A stretch of 64,000 nucleotides of DNA from sequence record OR844765; one strand, 5' to 3'. The notes under the pieces were generated by a model. That model saw nothing but the letters and a program-made list of their open reading frames with translations, did not search any database and was not told where the DNA came from. The position numbers were made by a program, and so were the translations under genes. Below, piece by piece: positions 8,128 through 9,143 of the stretch (its first letter is position 1; each line of letters starts with the position of its first letter). The DNA is from Escherichia phage ECO111 5-P.

Positions 8128-9143
8128 TAATTTAGGCCTAGGTATAAGGTGACTTATACTTGTAATCTATCTAAACGGGGGACCTCTCTAGTAGACAATC
8201 CCGTGCTAAATTGTAGGACTACCCTTTAATAAATACTTCTATATAAAAAGAGGTGTTTATGAAAAGCGGAATTTATCAGATTAAAAACACTTTAAACGGT
8301 AAAGTGTATGTTGGAAGTGCTAAAGATTTTGAGAAAAGATGGAAGAGACATTTTAAAGACCTTGAAAACGGTGTTCACTCTTCTATAAAATTTCAAAGGT
8401 CTTTTAATAAACATGGTAATGTTTTTGAATGCTCTGTACTGGAAGAAATTCCATATGAGAAAGATTTGATTATTGAACGAGAAAATTTTTGGATTAAAGA
8501 GCTAAATTCTAAAATTAATGGATATAATATTGCTGATGCGTCTTTTGGCGATGTGCTTTCAAATCATCCATTAAAAGAAGAAATTGCTAAGAAACGAGCT
8601 GAAACTGTTAAAGCTAAGATGCTTAAGCTTGGTCCTGATGGTCGGAAAGCTCTTTATGGTAAACACGGAAGTAAAAATGGCCGATGGAATCCGGAAAACC
8701 ACAAGTTTTGTAAATGCGGTGTTCGCATACCATCTTCGGCCGATACTTGTGGAAAGTGCCGAAAACGTTCAGGTGAAAATAACCCGTTCTTTAATCACAA
8801 ACATTCAGAAAAAACTAAAACTAAACTATCTGAAAAGATGAAAGGCAAAAAGCCAGCTAACATCAAAAAGATTTCATGCGATGGGATTATTTTTGAATGT
8901 GCAGCCGATGCGGCTAGACATTTTGAAATTTCATCAGGATTAGTTACTTACCGTGTAAAATCTGATAAGTGGAATTGGTTCTACATAAATGCCTAACGAC
9001 TATCCCTTTAGGGAGTAGGGTCAAGTGACTCGAAACGATAGACAACTTGCTTTAACAAGTTGGAGATATAGTCTGCTCTGCATGGTGACATGCAGCTGGA
9101 TATAATTCCGGGATAAGATTAACGACCTTATCTGAACATAATG
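8128..9143 (+). mobile_element. group I self-splicing intron (td intron) carrying homing endonuclease I-TevI
   Basis: 1016 bp between exon junction ...GGT|TAATTTAGGCC and ...ACATAATG|CTGCCG; 5' and 3' portions near-identical to T4 td intron as recalled. Confidence 0.9.
8259..8996 (+). CDS. I-TevI: intron-encoded GIY-YIG homing endonuclease I-TevI
   Basis: 245 aa from ATG 8259; MKSGIYQIKNTLNGKVYVGSAKDFEKRWKRHFKDLE... matches I-TevI. Confidence 0.92.
   Translation: MKSGIYQIKNTLNGKVYVGSAKDFEKRWKRHFKDLENGVHSSIKFQRSFNKHGNVFECSVLEEIPYEKDLIIERENFWIKELNSKINGYNIADASFGDVLSNHPLKEEIAKKRAETVKAKMLKLGPDGRKALYGKHGSKNGRWNPENHKFCKCGVRIPSSADTCGKCRKRSGENNPFFNHKHSEKTKTKLSEKMKGKKPANIKKISCDGIIFECAADAARHFEISSGLVTYRVKSDKWNWFYINA

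Follow-up and report, generated by a model that had tools for sequence, protein, structure and literature searches.

The td locus of Escherichia phage ECO111 5-P (sequence record OR844765) raises the question of whether its thymidylate synthase is encoded by one spliced gene or by two coding sequences with an endonuclease gene between them. In the 64,000 nucleotides analyzed, referred to here as the window, an earlier note had placed a group I intron of exactly 1016 bp at this locus. The intron was thought to split td after DVFLG with an in-frame TAA, and its excision to rejoin DVFLG|LPFNIASY in a 286-aa enzyme. The parts of the gene are as follows.

7579 to 8127, plus strand: td exon 1, a listed open reading frame of 549 nt (183 codons) matching positions 1-175 of the Pfam PF00303 profile (E=6e-63)
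8128 to 9143, plus strand: td group I intron, subgroup IA2, 1016 nt, opening with an in-frame UAA and closing with the terminal G 9143
9144 to 9455, plus strand: td exon 2, 103 codons plus stop, matching PF00303 profile positions 176-266

Exon 1 ends with GAT GTT TTC TTA GGT (…QRSVDVFLG), and the TAA was found directly behind it at 8128-8130. The intron begins with TAATTTAGGCC and ends with GAACATAATG. When 8127 is joined in silico to 9144, the junction reads …TTCTTAGGT|CTGCCGTTC… and is translated as …DVFLG|LPFNIASY… within a thymidylate synthase of 286 aa, a length equal to that of the T4 enzyme, with which 228 residues are identical. Since the exon 1 match to the PF00303 profile ends at position 175 and the exon 2 match starts at 176, the domain is contiguous across the junction, in agreement with the translation and with the product that had been proposed. 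The insertion is in phase 0, between GGT (Gly183) and CTG (Leu184). Intron-less td alleles are present in 277 phage records, which match a 401-nt query made from the spliced junction at one unbroken place. The 861-nt td of the Mosigvirus Shigella phage SHSML-52-1, which lacks the intron, can be aligned without a gap to the spliced gene of the window and is identical to it at 828 of 861 positions. The td gene model is join(7579..8127, 9144..9455). In most related GenBank records, automated annotation has divided td into a pair of 'thymidylate synthase' CDSs, of which the downstream one begins at the AUG formed by the final intron bases (9141-9143), and a 104-aa open reading frame is called for exon 2 because this AUG is in frame with it. 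The main value of the present analysis is thus one of annotation, a single spliced td in place of two CDSs.

The intervening DNA was then compared with the fold of the T4 td intron, for which the following elements were located.

8122 to 8127, plus strand: exon strand of P1 (UUAGGU), with U8127 as the 5' splice-site U
8133 to 8141, plus strand: internal guide sequence, of which 8136-8141 (GCCUAG) pairs with exon 1 as P1, G8136 being opposite U8127
8133 to 8135 (UAG) with exon 2 9144 to 9146 (CUG), plus strand: P10 of 3 bp, a pairing in the drawn fold
8142 to 8220, plus strand: 5' ribozyme half, with the P2 hairpin 8142-8159, P3 5' strand 8166-8171, P4/P5 8175-8204, P6 5' strand 8205-8206 and P6a 5' strand 8212-8220
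8259 to 8996, plus strand: I-TevI orthologue, 245 aa plus stop, in the P6a loop between strands 8212-8220 and 8977-8985
8977 to 8985 and 8991 to 8992, plus strand: P6a 3' strand and P6 3' strand, supplied by the last codons of the I-TevI ORF (…W-F-Y-I-N-A-stop)
8998 to 9143, plus strand: 3' ribozyme half, with the P7 5' strand 8998-9002, P7.1 9003-9014, P7.2 9018-9031, P3 3' strand 9037-9042, P8 9043-9062, J8/7 and P7 3' strand 9064-9073, P9 9078-9095, P9.1 9096-9111 and P9.2 9112-9132

The T4-type IA2 fold was drawn on the window from P1 to P10, including P6a, P7.1, P7.2, P9.1 and P9.2, and all 81 of its 81 standard pairs form. Every pair of the core P3-P4-P5-P6-P7-P8 with its P3/P7 pseudoknot is made, P5 being only 3 bp in the fold as drawn. 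Between P7 and the 3' strand of P3 lie P7.1 and P7.2, the extra hairpins that mark the IA subgroup. The strands of P6a are UGUAGGACU and GGUUCUACA. A pairing of GCCCU with AGGGU had been considered for P6a and was dropped, since the Rfam alignment and the deletion in phage 215Ecol030PP assign AGGGUC…GACUC to P7.2. The J8/7-P7 consensus AGAUAUAGUC at 9064-9073 is the sole perfect copy in the window. A search of the window with this motif for a second td-like intron core gave no other perfect copy, with near matches at the level of chance.

The fold was also followed through an alignment of 12 distinct td introns from which the ORF loop had been taken out, a set that yields 960 pair cells. Standard pairs fill 99.4% of these cells, and shifting the 3' partners by 1-3 columns lowers the fraction to 32-46%. 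Disruption of the group I core would speak against a working intron, and the core proved intact. Both sides have changed in six pairs, of which P8 and P9.2 contribute two each and P7.2 and P10 one each. The P7.2 case is a compensatory change from U-A to C-G in the Gelderlandvirus introns. The covariation support is narrow because the 12 introns are closely related and most pairs are invariant. The P10 case concerns its third pair, in which intron base 6 (8133) covaries with the wobble base (9146) of the codon that opens exon 2: in the td introns compared, the two positions are U-A in five, G·U in three, A-U in one, U·G in one and unpaired in two, T4 included. This distribution suggests that the third P10 pair tracks synonymous variation in the exon.

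A routine family search can miss this intron. The Rfam scan of the whole window at the gathering threshold (50 bits) reported nothing. At a relaxed E-value, RF00028 matched the window intron with 36.2 bits (E=7.6e-7), which is below the 50-bit gathering criterion, and aligned properly to the 3' half only (P8, J8/7 and P9). The ORF-less td introns of 215Ecol030PP and ESh30, which have essentially the same core, scored 65.5 and 70.3 bits, respectively. The low score is likely due to the 756-nt ORF loop in P6a, which splits the core. We take the sub-threshold value as a limit of the search and not as a failure of group I membership, and a default Rfam scan overlooks this ORF-bearing intron. A scan for sigma-70 promoters and terminators found nothing above shuffled sequences, and a minus-strand 'terminator' at 9043-9062 turned out to be the P8 hairpin.

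The intervening ORF, which the earlier note had matched to I-TevI, is 88.6% identical to the T4 protein, with 28 substitutions. Four Pfam domains were detected, namely GIY-YIG (PF01541, E=1.4e-16), I-TevI_ZnF (PF22635, E=1.8e-17), NUMOD3 (PF07460) and I-TevI_DNA-bd (PF20987, E=1.9e-31). The PDB entries for the catalytic domain (1mk0/1ln0, E ~3e-57) and for the DNA-binding domain (1i3j, residues 130-245, E=5e-66, and 1t2t) are matched end to end. Kept with respect to T4 are Y6, Y17, R27, H31, H40, E75 and N90, which we take to be the catalytic residues of I-TevI, as well as the zinc cysteines C151, C153, C164 and C167. The dN/dS of I-TevI against T4 is 0.12, and the full-length ORF is therefore under purifying selection. 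The I-TevI ORF of T4 reaches with its last bases into the structured intron core (PMC2988022), and the P6a and P6 3' strands of the window ORF agree with this overlap.

The overlap has a bearing on how I-TevI may be expressed. Two elements upstream of the ORF are of interest.

8229 to 8260, plus strand: RNA hairpin with a 12-bp stem, covering the Shine-Dalgarno GAGG 8250-8253 and extending two bases into the start codon
8216 to 8238, plus strand: stretch GGACTACCCTTTAATAAATACTT, putatively both operator and late promoter by its resemblance to each

The hairpin folds with -11.6 kcal/mol (z = -5.3), an energy equal to that of its T4 counterpart, and its stem differs from the T4 stem only by a change from U-A to U·G. 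Within its 5' arm, TAATAAATA at 8227-8235 departs by a single mismatch from TATAAATA, the consensus of T4 late promoters. T4 delays the translation of I-TevI until late transcripts initiate within the hairpin, and I-TevI represses the late promoter through an overlapping operator that resembles its homing site (PMC2988022). By analogy, the I-TevI ribosome-binding site would be locked in the 12-bp hairpin on early and middle transcripts of ECO111 5-P. Late transcripts would begin inside the hairpin at TAATAAATA, and the ribosome-binding site would be freed. Because the last codons of the ORF take part in P6a and P6, the delay in translation is proposed to protect splicing. The timing of expression, like the cleavage activity of the protein, is presumed for the window from what is known of T4. 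In ungapped comparison, 8216-8238 is identical at 15 of 23 positions to the T4-type homing site and at 13 of 23 to the homing site reconstituted from the window itself; in T4, operator region and homing site agree at 12 of 23. This resemblance is no more than suggestive of an autorepressor operator. Across the whole window, the T4 late motif TATAAATA occurs 18 times, as compared with 7.6 expected from shuffles. On the minus strand lie 13 of the 18, mostly at 30-64 kb, which fits a block of late genes transcribed leftward.

How does this intron differ from that of T4? Alignment to the T4 td intron (NC_000866, td/I-TevI), which had been put forward as a check, gave 90% identity overall and the same insertion point. 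The two share the gene, the site …VFLG|LPFN…, phase 0, the IA2 fold with P7.1/P7.2 and P9.1/P9.2, an ORF in the P6a loop whose 3' end forms P6a and P6, the hairpin over the ribosome-binding site, the late-promoter-like element and the domain layout of a 245-aa endonuclease. The T4 RefSeq intron, delimited in the same way, is 1017 nt, the difference being a 1-nt indel in L6a, and other T4-type records have 1016. All differences in the ribozyme fall in loops or joining segments or preserve pairing. Whereas T4 has the guide GCCUGA and the exon strand UUGGGU, the window has GCCUAG and UUAGGU; from T4 to the window, the P1 pairs change from G·U to A-U, from U·G to U-A and from U-A to U·G, and the synonymous TTG to TTA change of the exon is matched by the window guide. 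P10 is 2 bp in T4, whereas 3 bp are possible in the window. The remaining changes from T4 to the window are G·U to A-U in P9.2, G to A in the L7.1 loop, A54G in J4/5 as the sole difference in 8142-8220, and in L6a a 1-nt deletion with a G to A change.

Other td introns extend the comparison. Those of the Gelderlandvirus group (Salmonella phages CGG4-1 and Melville, Escherichia phage UoN_LG358_1) have the same site and core, are ~80% identical to the window, and carry compensatory replacements in P8, P9.2 and P7.2. A further set has the same site and core but has lost I-TevI, and illustrates the decay phase of the life cycle of a homing endonuclease.

215Ecol030PP: ORF-less td intron, 262 nt, with a 2-nt loop capping P6a
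ESh30: ORF-less td intron, 320 nt
F1: ORF-less td intron, 446 nt, with an ORF remnant
GRNsp7: ORF-less td intron, 254 nt, with P6a replaced by an unrelated CAGC/GCUG hairpin

Outside the phages, the I-BmoI/thyA intron of Bacillus mojavensis also places a GIY-YIG endonuclease in a group I intron of a thymidylate synthase gene. By its description it is alike in this respect, and it differs from the window in the intron, the host and the position of insertion (PMC2853131, PMC3664794). Relatives of the P7-P9 3' core were seen at 70-88% identity in other phage records, and the IA2 family is widespread among phages. Some lie inside genes, namely nrdD (JSE, phi92, ECGD1), DNA polymerase (4HA13) and terminase (rV5-like phages), and others in unannotated or hypothetical-protein regions, e.g. 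of phiKZ-like Pseudomonas and Felix-O1-like Salmonella phages.

The history of the element is best read from how its identity changes along td. The genome is Mosigvirus-like and not T4: its first 25 kb best match AV118, PHB12 and others, at 94-96% identity, with no exact match among the records. Within the intron, identity to T4 is 93.2% in the 5' ribozyme, 98.6% in the 3' ribozyme and 87.7% in the ORF DNA, whereas the flanking exons are only 78.9% (exon 1) and 69.3% (exon 2) identical. The intron allele is at least 99% identical in 21 records. Two of the Tequatrovirus genus, VEc20 and TB004, are 99.9% (1015/1016) and 99.5% identical, respectively, and together with AV109, a20 and G2469, which have a Mosigvirus-type td, they are 99.5-99.9% like the window over 1016 nt, the window intron differing by 1-5 bases. 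In 50-nt windows, by contrast, the exons of the window and VEc20 are 64-90% (exon 1) and 50-84% (exon 2) identical. High identity reaches only ~3-15 nt upstream and ~45 nt downstream of the intron. The ~45 nt of VEc20 exon 2 that adjoin the intron are Mosigvirus-type and not T4-type, which looks like co-conversion from a Mosigvirus-type donor. A near-identical intron in divergent td exons is the known signature of homing.

The synonymous divergence points the same way, as dS against T4 is 0.52 for I-TevI, whereas the td exons are practically saturated at ~2.0. The td gene is hence far older than its intron. A 2004 paper by Sandegren and Sjöberg (J Biol Chem 279:22218, cited in PMC2993671) has 'recent transfer of old introns' in its title, which matches the pattern here. 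The window exons have private changes of their own, synonymous at 8100 and 8112, and a G at 9146. The whole of the following picture seems to us an even proposition: a separate td-intron lineage ~10% diverged from T4, a very recent move between Mosigvirus and Tequatrovirus, a guide tuned to synonymous exon positions, and an L6a deletion that would better the register of the operator with the homing site (15/23 versus 12/23). The element itself is already known, as had been recognized: the T4 td/I-TevI comparison and the occurrence of the same allele in other GenBank phages identify it as the textbook td intron with I-TevI in a diverged allele. It is one more instance of the patchy, horizontally exchanged distribution of introns among T-even phages.

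Taken together, the sequence comparisons make it almost certain that the DNA inserted between Gly183 and Leu184 (phase 0) is a functional copy of the mobile group I intron known from the td gene of T-even phages. Three other readings have to be weighed against it. The td gene might be truly split or dead, its halves translated separately or unused and the intervening DNA an inserted endonuclease cassette only. The two annotated 'thymidylate synthase' CDSs and the AUG at 9141-9143 with its 104-aa frame would favor such an arrangement. Yet the ORF is flanked by a complete and conserved group I core with compensatory changes, the exon ends pair with the guide, the exons are constrained (dN/dS 0.08 versus T4), and the homologous T4 intron is the classic example of self-splicing, all of which make a split or dead gene very improbable. 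An even smaller chance is left to boundaries that lie one base off, at 8127-9142. This ambiguity of 1 nt arises in the DNA comparison because the intron-less SHSML-52-1 allele, whose junction is …CAACGCAGTGTAGATGTTTTCTTGGGC|CTGCCGTTCAACATTGCC…, has GGC where the window has GGT: a C at T8127 gives both placements an equal alignment score, and GGT and GGG both encode Gly. (The allele was placed by pairwise alignment, as MAFFT with intron-containing genes put it in the wrong place.) Placed at 8127-9142, however, the intron would end in U and the U·G pair at the splice site (U8127/G8136) would be lost. In 12 of 12 td introns compared, a T precedes the intron, P1 is paired with a U·G wobble at the splice site and the last intron base is G, the terminal guanosine G9143 thus being invariant. 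The splice-site U·G pair and the terminal G therefore set the boundary at 8128-9143, identical to the mapped T4 junction, and the counted length of 1016 nt stands as it was first given.

The third reading accepts splicing but holds that the intron is immobile in this lineage, with an I-TevI variant that is inactive or unable to cut Mosigvirus-type sites (…TTGGGC|CTGCCGTTCAACATT…). Eight of the 28 I-TevI substitutions do lie in the DNA-binding domain (residues 184-223), several positions of the T4 homing site are changed in Mosigvirus exon 2, and decay of the endonuclease is common at td, as seen in the ORF-less introns of 254-446 nt. Set against these are the full length of the ORF, the retained catalytic residues and zinc ligands and the low dN/dS, and the fact that I-TevI tolerates sequence variation in its site (PMC2988022). 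The near-identical intron with co-conversion-like flanks in the divergent td of two genera, moreover, argues for recent homing. We consider immobility unlikely, though less so than either a dead gene or a shifted boundary.

For the functional and mobile intron that we prefer, the following course of events is proposed on the model of T4. In the pre-mRNA, exon 1 UUAGGU would pair with the guide GCCUAG to form P1, and a guanosine bound in P7 would attack after U8127. The terminal G 9143 would then occupy the guanosine site while the short P10 holds exon 2, and the exons would be ligated. The spliced mRNA would yield the 286-aa enzyme, whereas on unspliced RNA translation would terminate at the UAA that opens the intron. 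Splicing in ECO111 5-P is thus expected from homology to T4. In a mixed infection, I-TevI would bind the intron-less td junction and cut 23/25 nt upstream at CAACG, and repair of the double-strand break would copy the intron and short exon tracts into the recipient. The CAACG, a CNNNG cleavage motif, is kept at 8101-8105 and also in the intron-less SHSML-52-1 allele. Both the cleavage offset of 23/25 nt and the co-conversion of flanking exons are described for T4 (PMC2988022).

The phage had also been described as intron-plus at td and intron-minus at nrdB, and this holds. The nrdB gene (12732-13907) is one unbroken ORF of 391 aa. In tblastn, its residues 1-224 and 226-391 match T4 and AV109 as two segments ~600 nt apart, and DNA alignment identifies a 592-nt insertion, absent from the window, that would fall after base 13404 (codon 224). 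AV109 is a close relative and is intron-plus at nrdB. The window thus combines an intron-plus td with an intron-minus nrdB; the nrdB intron is present in the nearest relatives of this Mosigvirus-like genome. Compared with AV109, nrdB is a mosaic at the empty site: downstream of it, identity is 98.8% in DNA and 100% in protein, and the upstream protein is 89% identical. A badly diverged patch of ~190 nt lies right before the empty site (13212-13404), and could be the scar of an intron gain or loss with co-conversion. Between the end of nrdA (12678) and the start of nrdB (12732) there is no mobE-type endonuclease gene (12679-12731), unlike in T4. A free-standing HNH-type homing endonuclease gene is located at 9786-10421 on the plus strand, with an upstream GTG at 9774, between an nrdA.2-like ORF (9456-9710, DUF5496) and nrdA, whose start it overlaps by 8 nt. 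Its product matches phrog_655 'homing endonuclease' (E=5e-46), and its C-terminus is weakly PF20987-like, at 25 bits and hence below the cut-off of 27. The position is that of nrdA.1 in T4, and AV109 has the same endonuclease gene.
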